Source: Bacillota bacterium (lineage in GTDB: Bacteria; Bacillota; Dethiobacteria; DTU022; UBA8154). From it: a DNA stretch of 64,000 nt. The notes under the pieces are model-generated. The model worked only from the letters and a program-made list of their open reading frames with translations. It did not search any database and had not been told where the DNA came from. Shown here piece after piece: positions 23,433 to 58,600 of this stretch (position 1 is its first letter; every line of letters begins with the position of its first letter). The stretch spans positions 2,047 to 66,046 of the forward strand of contig JAAZMP010000022.1 in assembly GCA_012798755.1 (NCBI GenBank). Direction: 5' to 3'. Position numbers and translations under genes: made by a program.

Positions 23433-23716
23433 CTCCTTTGATGAGGTAGTGTATTATTTAATTAAAAAATTACTTTGTGAATATAATGTGATTTGTAAAC
23501 ACGTCCGCCGTTTTCTATGTTCTTCGGCGTTTTGCTCAAGGTACTTACAGTTTTTAAAAAGATTTTTCAAGTGTTTCCTTTCGCATATTACAACATTATA
23601 ACATAACTTTTGTTTTTGACATTGATAAATAATACTTAAAAATCTTCTGACAAAATTCAAGAAAGCCTGCTAATGATAGCAGGCTTCCAGTGGGGAAGAC
23701 CCCCCATAAATATCAA

Positions 23717-23801
23717 TGGTGCGGGCGAAGGGATTTGAACCCTTACAGGTTGCCCTACAGGATCCTAAGTCCTGCGCGTCTGCCGATTCCGCCACGCCCG
23801 C
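23717..23801 (-). tRNA. tRNA-Leu (TAG), class II long variable arm
   Basis: Reverse complement folds: acceptor GCGGGCG/CGCCCGC, anticodon loop CTTAGGA (UAG), long variable arm, T-loop TTCAAAT, CCA encoded. Confidence 0.8.
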
Positions 23802-42244: not shown

Positions 42245-42360
42245 TGGCTGGCAGAGTAGGTGTTGTGCGTAAAGTGCTAAGGGATGGGAAGTTGCCCTTA
42301 GACGAAGGGTGCCCAATTGGCAGGCGACCTGCGACATAACACCGCATCCGCTGTCACACA
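42245..42360 (+). ncRNA. THF (tetrahydrofolate) riboswitch
   Basis: AGAGTAGG...TGCGT-AAGTGC...GGGAAG...GGGTGCCC-ATTGG...GGCGA-CTGCG-CATA...GCATCCGCTGT blocks as I recall them from the Rfam THF (folT) motif; immediately upstream of an ECF S-component. Confidence 0.7.
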
Positions 42361-49874: not shown

Positions 49875-51614
49875 TTGAGCCTTTTGTTATTATCAGTTGT
49901 TGCGCCGGTCATAGTATTTCCTGCCGTGCTTTTTCTTTCACAAAAGTGGCGCCGGGCAATCATGTTGATTTATATTGCCGGGCTGATCTATCTGGCCTTT
50001 TATCTCCTGTCCGGCGTTGAATTGGGCAGCCTTACCTTAATGTCAAAAAATCTGACATTGTTTTCGTTTAGCAGCCATCCTTACAGTAAAATTGCCGGCT
50101 TTGGTTTTCTGTTTGTGGGAGCCATTGGGCTTCTTTATGGCCTTGATGTCTCCAAGCCCGGGGAACAGGCGGTATTGTTAGGAGCAATAGGCAGTGCAAT
50201 AGGTGTTTGCTTTGCTGATAACTTCATTACCTTTCTTTTCTTTTGGGAGACCTTAACCTTAACCACTGCAGCTTTGGTTTTCCTAAAGAGAACACCGCAT
50301 GCTGTACGTATGGCTTTTCGGATGTTGCTCTTTTCATTGATGAGTGGCTTTTTCTTATTGATTGGAATAATACTTCAATACAATGCCACAGGTACTTTTG
50401 AATTAATGTTTCCGGTGGCCGGACTTACATTTTTCATTTTGGGCATCGGCATAAAAACCGCTTTTTTGCCTTTACACCTTTGGGTTCCCTGGGGATACCC
50501 CGCAGCCAGTTTTCCTTGCAGTGTTTTATTGGCGGCTCTATGTACAAAGGTTGGCGTCTATGCCGTGGCACGGTTGCTCCCACCTGGTAACTTGATTTAT
50601 ATCATGGGGGCCTGTATGGCTATCTATGCAGTTATCGCGGCTCTTCTCCAAAACGATCTGCGCCATCTGCTTTCATACAGTATTATCAGCAAGGTTGGGT
50701 TTATGGTTTGCGGTGTAGGTATCGGAGTACCCCTGGCAATAGACGGCGGGTTTTTATTTCTGATACATCATATGTTTTATAAAGCGCTGCTTTTTATGTG
50801 CGCAGGTGCCTTGATCTATACGGTGGGAACGGAAAATTTTCAAAAGTTACAGCACCGCGAAGAAGCCCCGGTGGGCGAAAAGGGCCCTTCACCCTTGTGG
50901 AAAGCCTTGCCGGTAGCTTTTATCGGGGCATTGGTAGGGGCGCTGGCTATCTCAGGCACCCCTCCTTTTAACGGCTATGTAGGTAAGCATTTAATAAAAC
51001 ATGCAGTAGCGGCAGCAGATCCGGCGGCAGGGTTGGTTTTAACGCTGGCCAGTATAGCAACAGCGCTTTGTTTTTGCAAGTTCGTATATTTTGGTTTCAT
51101 TAAAGCCTGGGGGAAAATCCGCAGGAAATTGACCTTCAGCATGCAGGCAGCTATCGTTATATTGTCTGCCGGCTGTCTGATAACAGGCATCTGGCCGCAA
51201 CTTTTGGCATCACTTACGCCCTATGGTTCATCGCTTAATGTTTATACCGCGGAAGGTATCTTTGCCGCGCTAAAACCAATTGCTTATGGGATAATATTAT
51301 TTGCTCTCCTAGCCAAGTCGCTGGGAAGGGAAATCAAATTGTTCTTGCCTGCCGGTGGTGTAAGATTAGTTGTAGATGATGCCTTGACCGGCGCTTATAG
51401 CAATGCTTTGAATTCGCTACGTGTTTTCAGAGAAAAGAGCTACCGTTTCGCTTTTAAAATGATGCAGAAAACAGATTATAAGCCGGGCCAGAACAGGGTT
51501 TTCCAATTTATTAACGTTTGTAACATAGATTTCGATGTCCTAATGCTTTTAGGGATGTTGGGCCTGGCGCTGTTTTTCCTGTTTTGTCTTCAGTTTGGAT
51601 TTCTGGCTATCTGA
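49875..51614 (+). CDS. NuoL/MrpA-N-domain-like proton-conducting membrane subunit, paralog 1 (579 aa)
   Basis: NuoL-like N-terminus, LHLWVPWGY ... HHMFYKALLFMCAG core; TTG start after AAGGAAG. Confidence 0.7.
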   Translation: MSLLLLSVVAPVIVFPAVLFLSQKWRRAIMLIYIAGLIYLAFYLLSGVELGSLTLMSKNLTLFSFSSHPYSKIAGFGFLFVGAIGLLYGLDVSKPGEQAVLLGAIGSAIGVCFADNFITFLFFWETLTLTTAALVFLKRTPHAVRMAFRMLLFSLMSGFFLLIGIILQYNATGTFELMFPVAGLTFFILGIGIKTAFLPLHLWVPWGYPAASFPCSVLLAALCTKVGVYAVARLLPPGNLIYIMGACMAIYAVIAALLQNDLRHLLSYSIISKVGFMVCGVGIGVPLAIDGGFLFLIHHMFYKALLFMCAGALIYTVGTENFQKLQHREEAPVGEKGPSPLWKALPVAFIGALVGALAISGTPPFNGYVGKHLIKHAVAAADPAAGLVLTLASIATALCFCKFVYFGFIKAWGKIRRKLTFSMQAAIVILSAGCLITGIWPQLLASLTPYGSSLNVYTAEGIFAALKPIAYGIILFALLAKSLGREIKLFLPAGGVRLVVDDALTGAYSNALNSLRVFREKSYRFAFKMMQKTDYKPGQNRVFQFINVCNIDFDVLMLLGMLGLALFFLFCLQFGFLAI

Positions 51615-51827
51615 AAAAAATATAAAATTGGCCTTGAGGAAATCCTGCAAATATGATATATTGACATTGAGTATACAAATATAAGTCAAAAATATAGATA
51701 ATATAGACAAAAATTTGGTTGCATCGGTTAATTTTGATGGTGCGCCTCCCCGGTAAAAAAATAATAATCATTGTTTTTAGGGAAATGGCTCTTCCTAAAA
51801 AACAATAAAAATTTGCATCTGTTTATA

Positions 51828-51866
51828 CAGCCCTTTTTCCTATTATGGAGCCGGGGCTTTTTTTAT
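51828..51866 (+). terminator. Intrinsic terminator following hairpin copy A
   Basis: AGCCC...GGGCT + T7. Confidence 0.45.
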
Positions 51867-51976
51867 GAATGGGAAAAAAGGTCGATGCAATGCAGCACGG
51901 TAAGTTCTCTTGGAACTGCTGAATGAGCTCAATTTTAACAAAAAACGAGCCAAATAATTAACCCCGGAGGTCAGCA

Positions 51977-52603
51977 GTGAACAAAAAAACCGTACGGGTG
52001 CTTCTGGCAGAGAAGCATACATTGTTTCGGCAATGCTTGGCAGGAATGTTGGGCAATGAAGGTATTCAGGTCGTAGGCGAAACGGATCGTGCCGCCGAAG
52101 TGCCAGAGCTTTACCGTTCCGGTAAACCAGACCTGGTCATAACCGACATCCAGCTATCTGATGGGAATGCACTGGATCTTCTTGCCGATTTTTTCACCAA
52201 ACATCCAAAACTGCCTGTCCTGATCATATCCAGCTATTATGAACCTGAAATGGTCGAAAAGGCGCTATCCCTGGGTGTAAAAGGTTATTATACCAAACAG
52301 TCACTTTTAGATGAAATCAGCGAGGCAATTTTAAAAGTTGTTGATGGAGAAAGGGCCTTCCACAATGACGTCCTGGACACTTTACTGCTTTCTTTCCAAA
52401 AAAAACGCCGCCGCACATTAAAAGACGATGAAATTAAGATCTTAAAACTATGCAGCGAAGGTAAGTCCTATACCGAAATTTCCTCAGAACTTTTCATCGG
52501 AGAAAGGACCTTTTACCGAAAACTTAATAACATTTTTGATAAACTGGGAGTAATCAACAAAGCACAAGCGCTGACTGTGGCCATTAGAAAAGGTTTAATT
52601 TAA
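51977..52603 (+). CDS. LuxR/NarL-family response regulator with atypical receiver (acidic pocket DD replaced by EK) and LuxR HTH
   Basis: VLLAEKHTLFRQ instead of canonical DDH; phospho-Asp context LVITDIQL retained; C-terminal LuxR HTH (KSYTEISSELFIGERTFYRKLNNIFDKLG); GTG start after GGAGG. Confidence 0.65.
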   Translation: MNKKTVRVLLAEKHTLFRQCLAGMLGNEGIQVVGETDRAAEVPELYRSGKPDLVITDIQLSDGNALDLLADFFTKHPKLPVLIISSYYEPEMVEKALSLGVKGYYTKQSLLDEISEAILKVVDGERAFHNDVLDTLLLSFQKKRRRTLKDDEIKILKLCSEGKSYTEISSELFIGERTFYRKLNNIFDKLGVINKAQALTVAIRKGLI

Positions 52604-53160
52604 AAAAGCAAAGCTGAAAAAGAACTTGATCGCCTGGCAAGACCCTACAAAAAGAATGCAGGGGAAAGGCGGCAGGTCCCAGCATTTTTCTTTGAGCTTA
52701 AACTGTAAGTCCCGGGATCCTTGGGGCAAAGCCCTGGGGATCCTTTGGATCCACCCCCCGATCGAACCCCGCCGTTTATCATTTCTGACAAGTGCAGCTA
52801 TCAGCTGCCATTTTAAATTCCCTGTGATCCATCATTTTTGGCCAAAGATTATACCTTCGAAAGTATATTGGCAATTTTTTTTATTGCAGGCAATATATAA
52901 GTCGTGGCAAATTACTGCCAAATATACTGCAATATATGACGTTGAGATGGCAGTTGTACTACTATGAAAGGGTAAATAATTCTGATATTATAAAATAAAA
53001 AGAACTTGGAGATGGCTCCTCCAAAAGGTTTCAATGAACAATATTCAAAAGGCGAACCTCCCCCGGTAGCGATTTTAACACGGTTTGCGTCTATTTGACA
53101 ACAATCATTATATTTGCCATTTCGTGGCAATATTTGACGCAACTTCTGACGTGTGAACTT

Positions 53161-53192
53161 GCTGCCCAGCATATGAGCCGGGCAGTTTTTTG
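53161..53192 (+). terminator. Intrinsic terminator following hairpin copy B
   Basis: CTGCCC-loop-GGGCAG + T6. Confidence 0.55.
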
Positions 53193-53433
53193 TTTGGTGA
53201 TGGGGAAAACAGCTAAATTTGACATAGGAAAGGGTGGATTCAAATGATTTAAAAAAATTTCCGAGCAATTTTCGGACCTTGAAATTGCAGTTCCAATTAT
53301 GCCGGCAATGCGCTTAAATTATGACTATGTTTTGGCAGCCATATCCCCCGGTTGGGAATTGGCTTGAGGGAAACGGTAAATTTTAACTAGGCGAAGGTTA
53401 TATCAACAATATGATAAAAAAGGAGTGTTTTAA

Positions 53434-55194
53434 ATGACCATTTTGTTATTATCTGTGGTTGCTCCAATTATAGTATCACCTGCTGTGCTATTGCTTTCGC
53501 AAAAGTGGCGTAGAATTTTGCTGCAAACTTACATTGTGGGGCTTCTCTTTTTAGCGTTTTATCTGTTAAGTGGCATTGAACTGGGAAATTATACTTTGTT
53601 TGCTGATTCTGCTCATCATTTGAAAACAAACCTGACATTTTTTTCGTTTAGTGAACACTCTTACAGTAAAATTGCGGCCTTCGGATTTCTGTTTGTGGGT
53701 GCTATGGGGCTGCTTTTTGGCCTCGATGTATCCAAGCCAAGTGAACAGGCCCTGTCGTTGGGCGCCATAGCTGCTGCCATAGGTGTTTGTTTTGCCGATA
53801 ATTTTCTTACTTTTCTCTTCTTTTGGGAGATCCTTACTTTAACTACCGCTGCTCTGGTGTTTTTAAAAAGAACACCTCATGCTGTTCGTATGGCTTACAG
53901 GATGTTGTTCTTCTCGCTGGCAAGTGGTTTTTCGTTACTGGTGGGTATAATTTTGCAGTATAACGCTGTAGGAACCTTTGAATTAATGTATCCGGTAGCG
54001 GGACTGTCTTTCTTTATTTTGGGTATAGGTATAAAAACCGCTTTTTTACCGCTGTATTTCTGGCTTCCATGGGGTTATGCCGCTGCAAGTTTTCCCAGTA
54101 GCGTTTTGCTGGCAGTGTTGTGTACAAAGGTCGGCGTATACGCTGTAGCGCGGATTCTGCCGCCGAGTAACTTTATTGTTATGATGGGGGCATGTATGGC
54201 AATTTTTGCCGTTGTCATGGCCTTGCTTCAGAATAACCTGCGCCGTTTCTTATCGTATCACATAATCAGCCAGGTCGGGTATATGGTTGCAGCAGTAGGG
54301 CTGGGTGTATCTTTTTCCATAGATGGTGGATTCTTGCATCTTCTTAATCATATGTTTTACAAAGCCCTGCTTTTCATGAGTGTGGGAGCTTTAATATTTA
54401 CCGCGAGGACGGAAAATTTCCAAAAGTTAAGCTCTGCTGAAAATTCCATCGTAGAAGCAGGAAAACGTTCACCTTTGTGGAAAGCCTTGCCCGCAGCATT
54501 CGTTGGTGCCCTGGTCGGTTCACTTGCTATTTCCGGTACCCCTTTGTTTAACGGTTATGTAGGGAAATATCTTATAAAAAATGCCATGAGTGGCGTACAG
54601 CCGGCGGAAATTTTACTGATGATAACCAGCGTAGGTACGGTTTTATGTTTTTGCAAGTTTATCTACTTCGGTTTTATCAAAGCACGGGCCAAAATACGCA
54701 AACGGCTGACTTCAAGCATGCAAACGGCCATTGTTATATTATCTGCAAGCTGTTTGATTACAGGCATCCGGCCGCAGCTTTTGGCAAGCATACTTCCCTA
54801 TAGCTCATCCCTTGAAGTTTATACGATGGAAGGAATAGTAATGGCCATGTTGATATTAGCATCAGGAGTGGTTATGTTTGCACTACTGCACAGGGTCCTG
54901 GAAAAGGAAATAAAATTGTCTTTTCCTGCAACTATTAAATCCGCTTTAAATATTTTGCCCGGTATATACAGTAGCCTATCGAATGTTACAGGAGCAGTCA
55001 GCAGCAGATTTCATTACTTATATTTTGGCTGCAGGCAGAAGTTAAATACAAAGGTAAACAAAATTAAGACCTCGCAATTTGCATATGCCACGAGCATAGA
55101 TTTTGATACATTACTTCTCATGGGTATGTTGGGAATAGTATTGACGCTGTTCTTTTGCCTGCAATTTGGTCTTTTCCGTATCATAATTTCGTAA
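53434..55194 (+). CDS. NuoL/MrpA-N-domain-like membrane subunit, paralog 2 (586 aa)
   Basis: Co-linear with paralog 1 (same N-terminus MxxLLLSVVAPxIVxPAVL, same C-terminal NIDFD..LLxGMLG tail); RBS AAAAGGAG. Confidence 0.7.
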   Translation: MTILLLSVVAPIIVSPAVLLLSQKWRRILLQTYIVGLLFLAFYLLSGIELGNYTLFADSAHHLKTNLTFFSFSEHSYSKIAAFGFLFVGAMGLLFGLDVSKPSEQALSLGAIAAAIGVCFADNFLTFLFFWEILTLTTAALVFLKRTPHAVRMAYRMLFFSLASGFSLLVGIILQYNAVGTFELMYPVAGLSFFILGIGIKTAFLPLYFWLPWGYAAASFPSSVLLAVLCTKVGVYAVARILPPSNFIVMMGACMAIFAVVMALLQNNLRRFLSYHIISQVGYMVAAVGLGVSFSIDGGFLHLLNHMFYKALLFMSVGALIFTARTENFQKLSSAENSIVEAGKRSPLWKALPAAFVGALVGSLAISGTPLFNGYVGKYLIKNAMSGVQPAEILLMITSVGTVLCFCKFIYFGFIKARAKIRKRLTSSMQTAIVILSASCLITGIRPQLLASILPYSSSLEVYTMEGIVMAMLILASGVVMFALLHRVLEKEIKLSFPATIKSALNILPGIYSSLSNVTGAVSSRFHYLYFGCRQKLNTKVNKIKTSQFAYATSIDFDTLLLMGMLGIVLTLFFCLQFGLFRIIIS

Positions 55195-55281
55195 GATCAA
55201 CAGGCAGTATATAGCCAAATAAATGGAACAAAGCAAACAGGATCCTTGATCACTGGCAAAGCCCAGCCTTAAGTAGCTATA

Positions 55282-55307
55282 CGGGGGCGGGCTTTGCCCC
55301 TTTTTTT
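55282..55307 (+). terminator. Intrinsic terminator after paralog 2
   Basis: GGGGCgggctttGCCCC + T7. Confidence 0.5.
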
Positions 55308-55778
55308 GCAGACCCTGCTAAAACATAGTGAAAAGGAATTGCCTTCATATGTAACCAATGGCAATACCGGTTTCGATCTTCTGGCGCAAACAAACCCTAA
55401 AATCACCCAAATGGGTTAGCTCTAGTCTCTTCCTTAAATTACTAGAGGGTTACTTCCAAATTACCCCCTAACGCCTATTGTCAAGATCGAATATATGTGA
55501 TAAGATACATATTAATTATATAAATTTAAATAGTTGGAAGAGACAACAAAGTTGGAATATTTTTTTAGGTGCCCCCCGGTTAAAAATATTGGTTCCTGAT
55601 AGCGTTTTCGGGAATGGCTCTCCCGGAAAGTTGTTCGGCAGGGTATAACCTTGTCCTACAAAGTACTAATTCAGAAACAATTAGCATTATTAAATAAATT
55701 CCTGCTCTGCGCAAACTTTGTCAGGTCATGGCAGGATACTATCATATCTTTGCAAATTACTGACACTTATGTGGCAGC

Positions 55779-55808
55779 TACCCCCCTATTACGGGGGGTT
55801 TTTTTTTG
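55779..55808 (+). terminator. Intrinsic terminator preceding hairpin copy D
   Basis: CCCCCCtattacGGGGGG + T9. Confidence 0.55.
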
Positions 55809-55999
55809 ATACTATAAAATAAAAGACCCTTCGGAGATGGCTCCTCCGAAGGGTATTAAGAGGCAGCACCACAAAGGCGCTCCCCCGGTAACAGCAACAT
55901 TATAGCATTTATAGCTTTTATTGTCTACATGTATTTGTGATTTTTTGTACATGCAAGCAAAAAAAAGTGCCTAAGTGTGCCGAATTTACAAATTATGTG

Positions 56000-56035
56000 C
56001 TGCCTAGCTTACGAGCCGGGCGGCTTTTTTGTTTT
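56000..56035 (+). terminator. Intrinsic terminator following hairpin copy D
   Basis: GCTGCC...GGCGGC + T6, homologous in position to the terminator at 53161. Confidence 0.45.
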
Positions 56036-56253
56036 TATAGGAAATTATGTCCCCAATAAGGAGGTGAGCCGGCAAAAAACATAAATTTGCTTAAATGGAA
56101 CATTTTGGATCAATGTGCGTGGAACAGCTTTTTCAAATAGCAGGATTTGTAGGTTACTTGTTTAGGAAATACAGCAGTTGTGGCAGTTCATAGGCAATAA
56201 AACCGAAGTAATTTTATCTTTCATACCTCAAAATTTACAGGGAAGTGATCTGG

Positions 56254-57996
56254 ATGAACTTTTTAGCATTGTCAATATTTGCCCCTGTGATAGTATCTCC
56301 AGTCATTATGTTTATTTCACAGAAGCGCCGGAGAGCCCTGATGCTGGTATATATTGCGGGGCTTCTTTTTCTGGCGTTTTATCTGTTGGCCGGGACCAAG
56401 TTAGGAGGTTACGTTGCATTTGCTGATTCAGCTTTTCAGTTGGAAACGAAGCTGACACTGTTTTCGTTCAGCGAACATCCCTACAGCAAAATAGCCGCTT
56501 TTGGATTCTTATTTGTAGGAGCTATTGGACTGCTGTATGGTCTGGATGTTTCCAAACCCTCAGAACAGGCTGTAGCCTTGGTTGCAGTTGCCAGCGCTTT
56601 GGGTGTAGCTTTTGCTGATAATTTCCTTACTTTTCTTTTCTTCTGGGAAACGTTAACCCTGTCTACTGCTGCACTCGTCTTTTTAAGAAGAACACCGCAT
56701 GCCGTAAGCATGGCTTACCGTTTACTGTTCTTTTCGCTCATGAGCGGCTTTATGCTGTTAGTGGGAATTATACTTCAGTATAACGCTACGGGGACTTTTG
56801 CACTGATGTACCCGGAAGCAGGACTTATCTTTTTCATCTTAGGTATAGGTATCAAAACGGCTTTTTTACCTTTGCATTTTTGGGTTCCCTGGGGTTACCC
56901 GGCTGCCAATTTTCCCAGCAGTGTTCTTTTGGCGGCCCTTTGCACAAAGGTGGGAGTTTACGCGGTAGCTCGGGTTCTTCCTCCCAGCAATTTTATCAAT
57001 ATCATGGGCGCTGTCATGGCTATATTTGCGGTCACCATGGCCCTTTTGCAAAGCGATCTGCGCAAGCTGCTTTCCTATCACATAATTAGCCAGGTAGGTT
57101 ACATGGTTGCGGGAGTGGGTCTGGGTATTTCCCTTTCCGTAGACGGCGGGCTTCTGCACTTAGTCAATCATATGATTTATAAAGCACTTCTTTTTATGAG
57201 TGCAGGTGCCGTTATTTTTGCTGTTGGAACGGAAAGCTTACATGATCTACATGTTCCCGGGGAAACTGCTGGCAAGGATAAACCATTGCTTTGGAAGGCG
57301 CTTCCTGTTGCTTTTGTAGGGGCACTTGTGGGGGCGCTGGCTATTTCCGGGACACCTCTTTTCAACGGCTATGTCAGCAAATACTTACTAAAAAATGCCA
57401 TGCAAGGCGTAAACCCGGCCGGTTGGCTGTTGAATGTAGCCAGTGTGGGAACGGCTCTTTCCTTCAGCAAATTTGTATATTTCGGATTTATCAAGGGTAG
57501 AGCAAAAATACAAAACAAATTGACCTTGAGCATGCAGGCTGCCATAGCGGTACTGTCCATTAGCTGTATTGCAACGGGTATCTGGCCGCGCTCTTTGTCA
57601 ACATTGTTGCCCCATGCTTCTTCGCTAAAAGTCTATTCATTATCCGGGGTGGTAACAGCTGCAGGCTTAGTAATTCTGGGGATAGCGTGTTTCATCCTGT
57701 TGTCTGAAGCCTTGCAAAAAGAAATAAAACTTTCTTTGCCCGTTTCTATAAAGTTGGCCGTGGATAGGGCCGCTCTTAGCACATACAGCAACATACTGAA
57801 AGCAATGGGGGCTTTTAAAGACCTTGTCTTTCATTCTGCATTTCGTTTAATGCAAAAAACGGATTACAAGCCGGGGAAAAGCGGTGTTTTCCATTTTATT
57901 AACGTAGCTAACATTGATTTTGATGTTATGCTGCTCATGGCTATGCTGGGGGTTACCTTGGTCTTCTTGTTCAGCACATTCGGCGCAGGATTTTAA
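56254..57996 (+). CDS. NuoL/MrpA-N-domain-like membrane subunit, paralog 3 (~580 aa)
   Basis: Co-linear with paralogs 1 and 2; leader AGGGAAGTGATCTGGATG nearly identical to paralog 1 leader. Confidence 0.7.
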   Translation: MNFLALSIFAPVIVSPVIMFISQKRRRALMLVYIAGLLFLAFYLLAGTKLGGYVAFADSAFQLETKLTLFSFSEHPYSKIAAFGFLFVGAIGLLYGLDVSKPSEQAVALVAVASALGVAFADNFLTFLFFWETLTLSTAALVFLRRTPHAVSMAYRLLFFSLMSGFMLLVGIILQYNATGTFALMYPEAGLIFFILGIGIKTAFLPLHFWVPWGYPAANFPSSVLLAALCTKVGVYAVARVLPPSNFINIMGAVMAIFAVTMALLQSDLRKLLSYHIISQVGYMVAGVGLGISLSVDGGLLHLVNHMIYKALLFMSAGAVIFAVGTESLHDLHVPGETAGKDKPLLWKALPVAFVGALVGALAISGTPLFNGYVSKYLLKNAMQGVNPAGWLLNVASVGTALSFSKFVYFGFIKGRAKIQNKLTLSMQAAIAVLSISCIATGIWPRSLSTLLPHASSLKVYSLSGVVTAAGLVILGIACFILLSEALQKEIKLSLPVSIKLAVDRAALSTYSNILKAMGAFKDLVFHSAFRLMQKTDYKPGKSGVFHFINVANIDFDVMLLMAMLGVTLVFLFSTFGAGF

Positions 57997-58367: not shown

Positions 58368-58600
58368 GGTGTCAAGGGGACGGTTCTCTGTCACCAACGG
58401 CGGTGTTCGGGAGGTGTCAGGGGGACGGTTCTCTGTCACCTTAGTTATTTAAAATAAGATCACAGCATTATCGGGATGACAGAGAACCGTCCCCCTGACA
58501 CCTCCCAGCATTATCGGGGTGACAGAGAACCGTCCCCCTGACACCTTTTGGTGACACTGCCGGCTTTTACCGACGCTTTCGAACCGTCCCCCTGACACCT
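58368..58600. repeat. Left inverted-repeat arm: several copies, in both orientations, of the 27-bp motif GTGTCAGGGGGACGGTTCTCTGTCACC with CAGCATTATCGGG linkers
   Basis: Direct reading; reverse complement of 60085-60247 matches it with only a few mismatches over ~150 bp. Confidence 0.85.

Follow-up and report, generated by a model that had tools for sequence, protein, structure and literature searches.

The subject of this analysis is a family of hairpins with the invariant loop ATGGCTC, which lies downstream of an mrp (mnh) operon in a Bacillota bacterium (GTDB lineage Dethiobacteria, DTU022, UBA8154) within a 64,000-nucleotide (nt) stretch of contig JAAZMP010000022.1 (assembly GCA_012798755.1), referred to throughout as the window. 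The mrp operon spans ~44 to 49.8 kilobases (kb) of the window, and downstream of it come three paralogous genes whose products, each of ~580 amino acids, match PF00361 only: paralog 1 (49875-51614, plus strand), the last gene of the operon, paralog 2 (53434-55194, plus strand) and paralog 3 (56245-57996, plus strand). Between paralogs 1 and 2 stands a gene for a NarL/FixJ-type response regulator (51977-52603, plus strand) with a receiver domain and a GerE helix-turn-helix (HTH), which occupies an equivalent position in the related loci L081, L084 and L088. An earlier interpretation made without database searches, hereafter the sequence-only reading, had taken the paralogs for MrpA/NuoL-like proteins; because their best NCBIfam match is 'Na+/H+ antiporter subunit D', albeit below the cutoff, they are instead MrpD-like.

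Four ATGGCTC-loop hairpins had been described in this region, and all four are present where they were reported, with the loop at 51785-51791 (copy A), 53012-53018 (B), 55614-55620 (C) and 55837-55843 (D). All are intergenic and fall within 4.1 kb. The heptamer by itself is not enriched in the window (9 occurrences against 8.1 expected), and copies A to D are the only ones of the nine in which it sits in a hairpin loop, given a minimum stem of 4 pairs; their contiguous stems run to 5-11 pairs. The stems vary yet stay complementary, even the two pairs that close the loop being swapped between copies (GGAG/CUCC, GGGA/UCCC, GGAA/UUCC), while the loop is unchanged here and in homologous loci of two other lineages, where the elements lie at equivalent positions, a recurrence which argues that the four-hairpin pattern is not due to chance. 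Covarying stems around an invariant loop also bear out the earlier suggestion that what is constrained is a single strand in its folded form rather than a DNA site with symmetry. Recombination hairpins of the integron attC or IS200/IS605 type, which function as single-stranded DNA, were considered and rejected, as no recombinase or transposase gene lies nearby and the conserved part is the loop rather than the base of the stem.

A box of pattern CCCCGGTW adjoins each of the four hairpins (at 51748 in A, 53061 in B, 55574 in C and 55883 in D), as the sequence-only reading had it, but strict conservation is limited to CCCCGGT, and the layout is permuted, with the box upstream of the hairpin in A and C and downstream in B and D. 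Across the window the pattern is over-represented, with 10 occurrences against 4.3 expected, a count of 10 being reached by 1 of 100 shuffles. On the plus strand the order is box, hairpin, terminator in A and C, and hairpin, box, ~95 nt, terminator in B and D. The terminators reported after A, B and D are real intrinsic terminators carrying GAGCCGGG, at 51848, 53175 and 56013; the one after C is different (55780-55799) and forms part of a strong terminator between C and D (ACCCCCC...GGGGGGT-U9; 55780-55808, plus strand) that is degenerated in B-type copies.

Two classes of element on opposite strands

When the box-to-hairpin segment was folded on both strands, the two layouts parted company. 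Copies of the B/D type, termed class 2, fold 5.2-18.1 kcal/mol better on the minus strand in all 8 copies folded (B, D and six homologues), with copy B, the most degenerate of them, showing the advantage of 5.2 kcal/mol; copies of the A/C type, termed class 1, fold 1.8-8.1 kcal/mol better on the plus strand in 6 of 6. For copy D the minus-strand fold reaches -38.8 kcal/mol (z -5.1) as against -28.7 kcal/mol (z -3.4) on the plus strand, and the minus-strand RNA of its homologue L081D reaches -43.3 kcal/mol (z -5.9). The pairing itself gives the same answer. On an alignment of nine class 2 copies, the helix cells of the consensus two-hairpin structure comprise 166 Watson-Crick pairs, 59 G·U pairs and 16 mismatched or unpaired cells when read on the minus strand, and 166 Watson-Crick pairs, 6 G·U pairs and 69 mismatches on the plus strand, because minus-strand G·U pairs become A·C mismatches when read on the other strand; counting internal pairs only, the minus strand has 27 G·U pairs and 13 mismatches and the plus strand 6 and 34. 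Many of the G·U cells are inherited rather than independent, and the independent events number roughly ten, not 59, which weakens the argument, although their direction is nonetheless consistent. The contiguous stem of the loop-bearing hairpin, P1, is longer on the minus strand in 7 of 8 class 2 copies, each with at least one G·U pair there, and longer on the plus strand in 5 of 6 class 1 copies, the wobble always falling on the favoured strand. As judged from these comparisons, the four hairpins appear to be two classes working on opposite strands and not one repeated element.

Class 1 reads on the plus strand as helix P2, box, hairpin P1, terminator and then the NarL-type regulator gene. For copy A, a sigma-A-type promoter predicted by consensus scan only (TTGAGG-17-TATATT with TG; 51634-51662, plus strand), with TGnTATAAT-like boxes at the equivalent place in L081 and L084, would start a leader that contains P2 (51717-51746, plus strand, from predicted folds), the box CCCCGGTA (51748-51755, plus strand), P1 (51763-51813, plus strand, an inverted repeat) with its loop AUGGCUC, and an attenuator or terminator, AGCCC...GGAGCCGGGGCU-U7 (51829-51864, plus strand), whose 3' arm GCCGGGG is the complement of the box. 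The 3' arm of P2, GGUGCGCC, is the left part of the box as originally drawn, and in L084A the P2 helix has two G·U pairs on the plus strand. Only one change has occurred in the ~35 nt of the class 1 terminator across three lineages. In the minimum free energy fold of the complete leader, in all three lineages, the CCCCGGU box pairs with the GCCGGGG 3' arm of the terminator, P1 is enclosed and the terminator is absent; the box is therefore best read as an antiterminator strand. The leader is thus predicted to possess mutually exclusive antiterminator and terminator folds, with the terminator forming once the box is occupied. No conserved -35/-10 was found when a minus-strand promoter was sought for the class 1 copies.

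The second class 1 copy, C (55570-55629, plus strand; box at 55574-55581, P1 at 55605-55629), aligns with A, then with the start of the regulator 5' untranslated region (UTR), then with the region upstream of B. The entire C-D spacer is a copy of the segment from A through the regulator gene to B, minus the regulator coding sequence: after C come a decayed copy of the A terminator, the first ~50 nt of the regulator 5' UTR, and sequence that in the first copy lies upstream of B. By this alignment C appears to be the relic of a duplicated leader from which the regulator gene was deleted. Despite its decayed terminator, C keeps an intact loop and box and a G·U pairing on the plus strand, and it may be a decoy or may simply be young. 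The flanks common to B and D, pointed out in the sequence-only reading, are borne out by sequence comparison.

Class 2, read on the minus strand, has at the sequence level the makings of small RNA (sRNA) genes with their own promoter and an intrinsic terminator, the latter consisting of the minus-strand hairpin (P1') and a U-tract. The layout of the predicted sRNA is a short 5' tail, (U)UACC, a G-rich hairpin P2' of ~12 pairs, and P1'. In copy D (55805-55892, minus strand; covariance-model match of 98 bits, E 2.4e-28) the 5' tail GUUACC is followed by P2', by P1' with the loop GAGCCAU, and then by CUUUUAUUUU; in copy B (52981-53070, minus strand; 60.8 bits, E 1.9e-16) the 5' end is ACCGGGGG, followed by P2', P1' with the same loop, and the U-tract. 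On the minus strand the GC-rich stem of the hairpin runs into CUUUUUAUUUU, and as terminator-like sites B and D rank near the top for the region, D coming first on the minus strand. Beyond the box, 8 of 9 listed class 2 copies carry on the minus strand TAGACA, a spacer of exactly 17 nt and TGnTATAAT (TATAAC in one), while the first 13 positions of the spacer are only 51% identical between copies; such a combination, in which the hexamers and the distance between them are kept but the intervening sequence is free to drift, is the mark of a promoter. The predicted promoter of sRNA D (TAGACA-17-TGcTATAAT; 55899-55927, minus strand) agrees with the consensus at 11 of 12 positions, and that of sRNA B (TTGTCA-18-TGnTAAAAT; 53072-53101, minus strand) comes from a sequence scan. 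The sRNA is predicted to be ~70-100 nt long, its length being set by the position of the start, with the -10 box 1-22 nt from the YUACC tail. In the consensus two-hairpin structure 93% of cells are paired, as against 53-69% when partners are slid. With these classes distinguished, the arrangement of the locus appears to reflect tandem duplication of a module consisting of leader, regulator gene, sRNA gene and mrpD-like gene, the second copy of which lost its regulator gene.

Inverted repeats of the form TGGCA-N6-TGCCA are conserved upstream of each class 2 unit (52903-52920, 55747-55770), and TTGTC-N5-7-GACAA repeats overlap the -35 box of the sRNAs (minus-strand -35 regions near 53096-53130 and 55920-55945). 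It is a matter of speculation whether a dimeric DNA-binding protein uses these as operators; the neighbouring NarL-type regulator is a possible candidate, and its binding would complete a feedback loop.

The operator-like look of these palindromes, the run of T or A that flanks every hairpin on one side, and the origin of the copies by segmental duplication could all be accommodated without any dedicated RNA regulation, if the hairpins were ordinary, partly bidirectional terminators or insulators between tandem duplicates, with loop and box alike through recent duplication or gene conversion or as DNA sites of the response regulator. Such a view is distinctly improbable. Terminator loops are normally free to vary, whereas this loop is invariant in more than 14 copies from three lineages while stems and flanks diverge; the G·U asymmetry, which differs by class, reveals selection for RNA pairing on one particular strand; every class 2 hairpin is served by a promoter of exact spacing; and covarying stems are needless for a DNA site.

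Could the class 2 transcript instead be translated, either into a small protein (MVLPLEALRRSHLRRAFL) or as half of a type I toxin-antitoxin pair? In several copies an AUG or GUG stands 7 nt after a Shine-Dalgarno-like GGGGGGUG, and the hairpin is spanned by an open frame, but a 1-nt indel in L102 shifts this frame across the hairpin while keeping the RNA structure and its pairing. In addition, the frame of copy B differs at its N-terminus and lacks a suitably positioned Shine-Dalgarno; L138 reads AUA where the start codon should be, and that codon is enclosed by the stable P2'; the product would be a basic peptide rather than a hydrophobic toxin; and changes in the stem are compensatory for pairing rather than synonymous. 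A coding function was accordingly rejected as highly improbable.

A more conventional explanation would make class 1 an attenuator under the control of a ligand or protein (a cation, pH or an RNA-binding protein) that acts at the box and P1 loop, with class 2 irrelevant or a set of decoys. The alternative antiterminator and terminator folds of class 1, its strongly conserved single-stranded motifs and its setting in a cation-antiporter cluster would suit such a device, and the sequence-only reading had proposed something similar, namely four copies of one sense-strand aptamer and terminator leader, duplicated with a downstream transporter gene and, at a guess, responsive to a cation. Much of this does not hold: B and D fold on the minus strand with a minus-strand promoter and terminator, box and hairpin come in permuted order in the two pairs of copies, copy A precedes a response-regulator gene rather than a transporter gene, and the conserved multi-helix core that would form a ligand pocket is absent; what remains is a hairpin loop and an 8-nt strand, both single-stranded and invariant. 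Rfam release 15, scanned over the whole window at gathering score and over 48.5-59.5 kb up to E=10, matched the element at no threshold, Na+/Li+-type motifs included as far as the release holds those families; within 48.5-59.5 kb it returned only noise from microRNA and snoRNA models, and elsewhere in the window it found three tRNAs and a tetrahydrofolate (THF) riboswitch, the latter evidence that the scan works. No gene for an RNA-binding protein is encoded near the class 1 leader, the family is known from three lineages only, and there would be no explanation for a nearby RNA gene that is equipped with a promoter and contains the precise complement of each motif. Control by a ligand or protein is consequently quite unlikely, and the riboswitch interpretation overall is partly supported: RNA structure and terminators stand, and the aptamer and the single strand do not. 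Antitermination of the ANTAR type was also rejected. ANTAR targets are two tandem hairpins with hexaloops that carry A at position 1 and G at position 4, near a gene for an ANTAR-domain protein; the loops here are of 7 nt, and the output domain of the adjacent regulator is a GerE/LuxR DNA-binding HTH, not ANTAR.

The THF riboswitch recovered in the Rfam scan lies at 42250-42355 (plus strand; 77 bits, E 6e-16), and its equivalent in related loci sits between genes for formate-tetrahydrofolate ligase and an energy-coupling factor (ECF) transporter S-component, upstream of the mrp operon.

Distribution among related loci

Protein homologues of the locus come from uncultured Bacillota (Dethiobacter-like and Syntrophomonadaceae-like), many of them from biogas reactors. 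Among 80 homologous loci drawn from 185,579 species genomes, the elements are carried by L001 only; in the nearest other relatives one gene directly follows another without a leader, and motif matches there are chance occurrences inside coding regions. Paralog 1 is kept in all relatives, including those free of the element, and in L090-L093 it comes right after the operon, with no regulator gene, extra paralogs or elements. Contigs encoding the closest homologues provided the full layout in two more lineages (L081/L088 and L084), in the order operon, paralog 1, element, regulator gene, element, paralog 2, element or elements, paralog 3. Neighbouring proteins are only 66-75% identical across the three lineages, against which the near-invariance of the class 1 terminator stands out.

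A metagenome-wide scan for box plus hairpin returned 60 loci, of which ~7 are real and the rest random, the ~50 random matches being expected from the information content of the pattern. The real loci are those of the three lineages together with L102 (contig FZPS01000090.1, 3300-4290) and L110, where a class 2-type element with a plus-strand terminator precedes a different PF00361 gene, MrpD/NuoN-like, which indicates that the element travels with more than the three paralogs of the window. The covariance model built from class 2 finds only B and D in the 64 kb and only syntenic copies in 28 related loci. Such a model, the construction of which the sequence-only reading had suggested, and the metagenome-wide scan find copies in this locus type only, and the dispersed repetitive palindromic element of REP/BIME type that the same reading had held out as an alternative is not what is found. 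On these searches the element family is real, conserved and narrow, confined to this locus type.

Two further observations concern repeats and weak matches in the window. The sRNA covariance model has a weak match at 23646-23714 (minus strand; 16 bits, E 0.04) that adjoins a tRNA at 23720-23801 and is probably just a terminator hairpin. Between paralog 3 and a DnaJ-like gene, positions 58371-58600 hold a cluster of nested inverted repeats built from a ~27-nt unit, GGTGTCAGGGGGACGGTTCTCTGTCACC, and its complement, in at least 5 copies; its minus strand forms one long perfect hairpin (-118 kcal/mol, z -14), it is the origin of spurious MIR2646 and mir-128 matches in Rfam, and it looks like a REP/MITE-like repetitive palindromic element.

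A predicted small RNA and attenuator pair

No blocks other than the loop and the box are invariant across the two classes. Since the classes lie on opposite strands, the RNA of one carries the complement of each block in the other, an indication of RNA-RNA recognition. The sRNA loop GAGCCAU forms 7 pairs with the leader loop AUGGCUC (duplex of -9.8 kcal/mol), and the 5' end of the sRNA (UACCGGGG...) is the complement of the class 1 box region, with UUACCGGGG of the sRNA and CCCCGGUAA of the leader giving a box pairing of 8-9 nt at -15.5 kcal/mol. In the window the sRNA 5' end makes 8 contiguous pairs on CCCCGGUA, and in the three lineages 10-15 when G·U or one mismatch is allowed. Read by hand, the pairing continues through the GGYGC portion of the box and amounts to 15 contiguous pairs, three G·U included, in L081, and to 9-10 plus 4-6 pairs flanking one mismatch in the window and L084.

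These features suggest a model in which the class 2 genes would make a minus-strand sRNA that acts in trans on the class 1 leader. In the leader alone, the box CCCCGGUA would sequester an arm of the terminator, and transcription would continue into the regulator gene. While the leader is being synthesized, loop-loop kissing would nucleate contact with the sRNA, whose 5' end would then capture the box at its predicted binding site (51748-51755) and take it from the terminator arm; the freed arm would let the terminator form, and the regulator gene would be attenuated. The same sRNAs may also act in cis, as antisense to plus-strand transcripts that cross the sRNA genes toward the MrpD-like paralogs. 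What the sequence analysis shows is a division into two classes that prefer opposite strands, together with signatures of promoters and terminators, complementarity between the classes and a predicted pairing of box and terminator; that the RNAs are made, that they meet and in which direction they act is inferred. A pair of sRNA and attenuator, that is, antisense-RNA transcription attenuation acting in trans on the class 1 leader, is put forward tentatively, at slightly short of an even chance.

Several points weigh against this reading. The promoters, the ends of the sRNAs and the start of the leader have all been predicted from sequence; copy B folds poorly, with a z of only -0.37, and the predicted start in copy B and in L102 leaves almost no 5' tail. 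Covariation in the consensus structure is thin, since only three lineages are available, and amounts to 4 double-change pairs, a number reached by 18 of 500 shuffles. Because the target sites stand in opposite order in the two RNAs, both contacts cannot form one continuous duplex, and most of the sRNA sequence that would pair with the box is buried in the sRNA's own stable P2'. When leader and sRNA are cofolded, 6 of 6 combinations show sRNA-box pairing together with the terminator, but 58-79% of dinucleotide-shuffled sRNAs likewise flip the leader to the terminator, with similar energy gain; the switch in cofolding is thus non-specific, and indicates that the leader sits near a tipping point while saying nothing about this sRNA in particular. 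In the plus-strand terminators beside the class 2 copies of L081 and L084, the pairing of box with terminator is not retained.

The GAGCC motif is a further point that the sRNA and attenuator pair accounts for only in part. GAGCC, or GAGCU, is kept in the loop of every plus-strand terminator, including those between sRNA gene B and paralog 2 (53160-53191, plus strand), whose stem covaries between CUGCCC/GGGCAG and CUGCCU/AGGCAG, and between sRNA gene D and paralog 3 (55998-56029, plus strand), which has plus-strand G·U pairs; a GAGCCA motif conserved in three lineages also lies ~15 nt upstream of the Shine-Dalgarno of the regulator gene (51947-51952, plus strand). GAGCC(A) is the complement of the plus-strand P1 loop and identical to the sRNA loop, and it may be a competing intramolecular partner of P1. 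As the main switch, pairing of the P1 loop with GAGCC within the leader was rejected, GAGCC being already paired in the predicted antiterminator; the loop never varies and so offers no covariation between the two, and the variant GAGCU still allows a wobble with the loop. Pairing of the box with a Shine-Dalgarno-like GGAGGUGA/GGGGGUGA past the plus-strand terminators, or with the ribosome-binding site of the regulator gene, was also discarded, since it is present in some copies and shows no covariation. RNAduplex applied to long sequences gave meaningless long interrupted duplexes.

The conserved plus-strand terminator between each sRNA gene and its paralog, with its plus-strand G·U pairs and covarying stem, invites the alternative that the sRNAs are classical countertranscripts whose action is confined to cis, on the plus-strand leaders of mRNAs for the MrpD-like paralogs, and that their resemblance to class 1 is a matter of common descent. 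Transcription of the paralog leaders would then begin at a TGnTATTAT box a short way upstream of each hairpin, and attenuation would take place at the plus-strand terminator that follows. On the plus strand there is indeed a conserved TGn extended -10 box upstream of P1, an sRNA gene lies upstream of every extra PF00361 gene, that of L102 included, and the geometry matches that of pT181, pIP501 and RnaG. The plus-strand -10 box, however, overlaps the complement of the sRNA U-tract, so that its conservation proves nothing; D-type copies have a strong terminator immediately upstream; and the box-terminator pairing of the paralog leaders is kept only in the window copies and L102. Action in cis only also leaves unexplained the invariant class 1 loop and box with plus-strand G·U in three lineages, and is considered unlikely.

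Two features of the paralog leaders deserve mention in their own right. In the 5' region of paralog 2, positions 53344-53372 (plus strand) hold a box-like CCCCCGGTT and, after it, GGGAATTGGCTTGAGGG; the combination looks like a class 1 box and loop in degenerate form, is partly complementary to the sRNA 5' end and loop, and is not conserved in the L081 or L084 lineages. In addition, a strong Shine-Dalgarno-like GGAGGTGA/GGGGGTGA occurs 30-40 nt past each class 2 plus-strand terminator (53225-53240, 56058-56070), with equivalents in L081, L084, L102 and L138, and in several copies it is followed by a start-stop or a mini open reading frame of 5-7 codons (ATG TGA, ATG TAA); together these could be a leader peptide or a ribosome stand-by site. 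Near this site, L081B and L084B contain a remnant of the N-terminus of an L102-like gene.

Relation to known antisense systems

The proposed sRNA and attenuator pair has its nearest counterparts in pT181 RNAI/II, pIP501 RNAIII, pAMbeta1 and RnaG/icsA. As in those systems, a small structured RNA has its own promoter and terminator (here predicted), recognition would involve complementary hairpin loops and a single-stranded stretch, and the target leader folds as antiterminator or intrinsic terminator upstream of the regulated gene. Unlike them, the class 1 leader does not lie opposite the sRNA genes, which are 1.2 and 4 kb downstream of it; the order of sites is permuted, and action would be in trans with pairing of only 7 plus 8-15 nt; and the locus is a chromosomal antiporter and response-regulator cluster rather than one for plasmid replication. 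An Rfam scan of the locus found no similarity to the countertranscript RNA (ctRNA) families. What is new in comparison with known countertranscript attenuation is trans action, permuted target sites, a chromosomal antiporter and regulator locus, and a position outside the Rfam ctRNA families.

Fast-pairing antisense loops are typified by the YUNR U-turn motif, which is absent from the loops here. The seven-nucleotide complementary loop pair with a second single-stranded contact nonetheless recalls the loop-seeded antisense RNAs of R1 and ColE1, from which the locus differs in that the predicted outcome is control of termination and not of translation or replication. Loop-loop kissing is described in the antisense control of plasmid R1 and ColE1 (cited in PMC2879508), and there is a precedent for sRNA-induced terminator formation via kissing contacts in RnaG/icsA of Shigella, where the RNAs first meet by kissing and pair into a duplex afterwards, with an intrinsic terminator arising on the nascent mRNA (PMC2879508). 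Cation riboswitches (the DUF1646 Na+ motif and the nhaA-I Li+ motif) likewise occur in a cation/proton antiporter neighbourhood and use an intrinsic terminator as expression platform; the elements described here differ from them in lacking an Rfam match or conserved aptamer core, in that half of the copies lie on the other strand, and in that the sense-strand copy precedes a regulator gene.

A more elaborate version of the model would see the locus as a self-contained duplicating cassette, in which the sRNA arose when a copy of the leader that it targets was rearranged; it would imitate the terminator arm (GAGCC plus CCGGGG) and compete with it for the loop and antiterminator box of the leader, so setting the level of the response regulator; the regulator in turn may control the sRNA promoters and the extra MrpD-like subunits. 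This is possible, if on the unlikely side. If true, the cassette would be a chromosomal, trans-acting version of plasmid countertranscript attenuation placed in a feedback loop.

For the annotation of such loci, the lesson is that a motif repeated identically along one DNA strand may be part of two complementary RNAs, each encoded on a different strand, and that bookkeeping of G·U as against A·C can separate them. The reach of the finding is limited to three uncultured lineages. If the model of an sRNA and attenuator pair is right, these lineages would provide a rare case of chromosomal sRNA-controlled transcription termination in Bacillota, outside plasmid replication, in which tandem duplication of a gene together with its regulatory RNA would have built an RNA-protein circuit around extra Mrp subunits in bacteria of syntrophic communities and biogas reactors.

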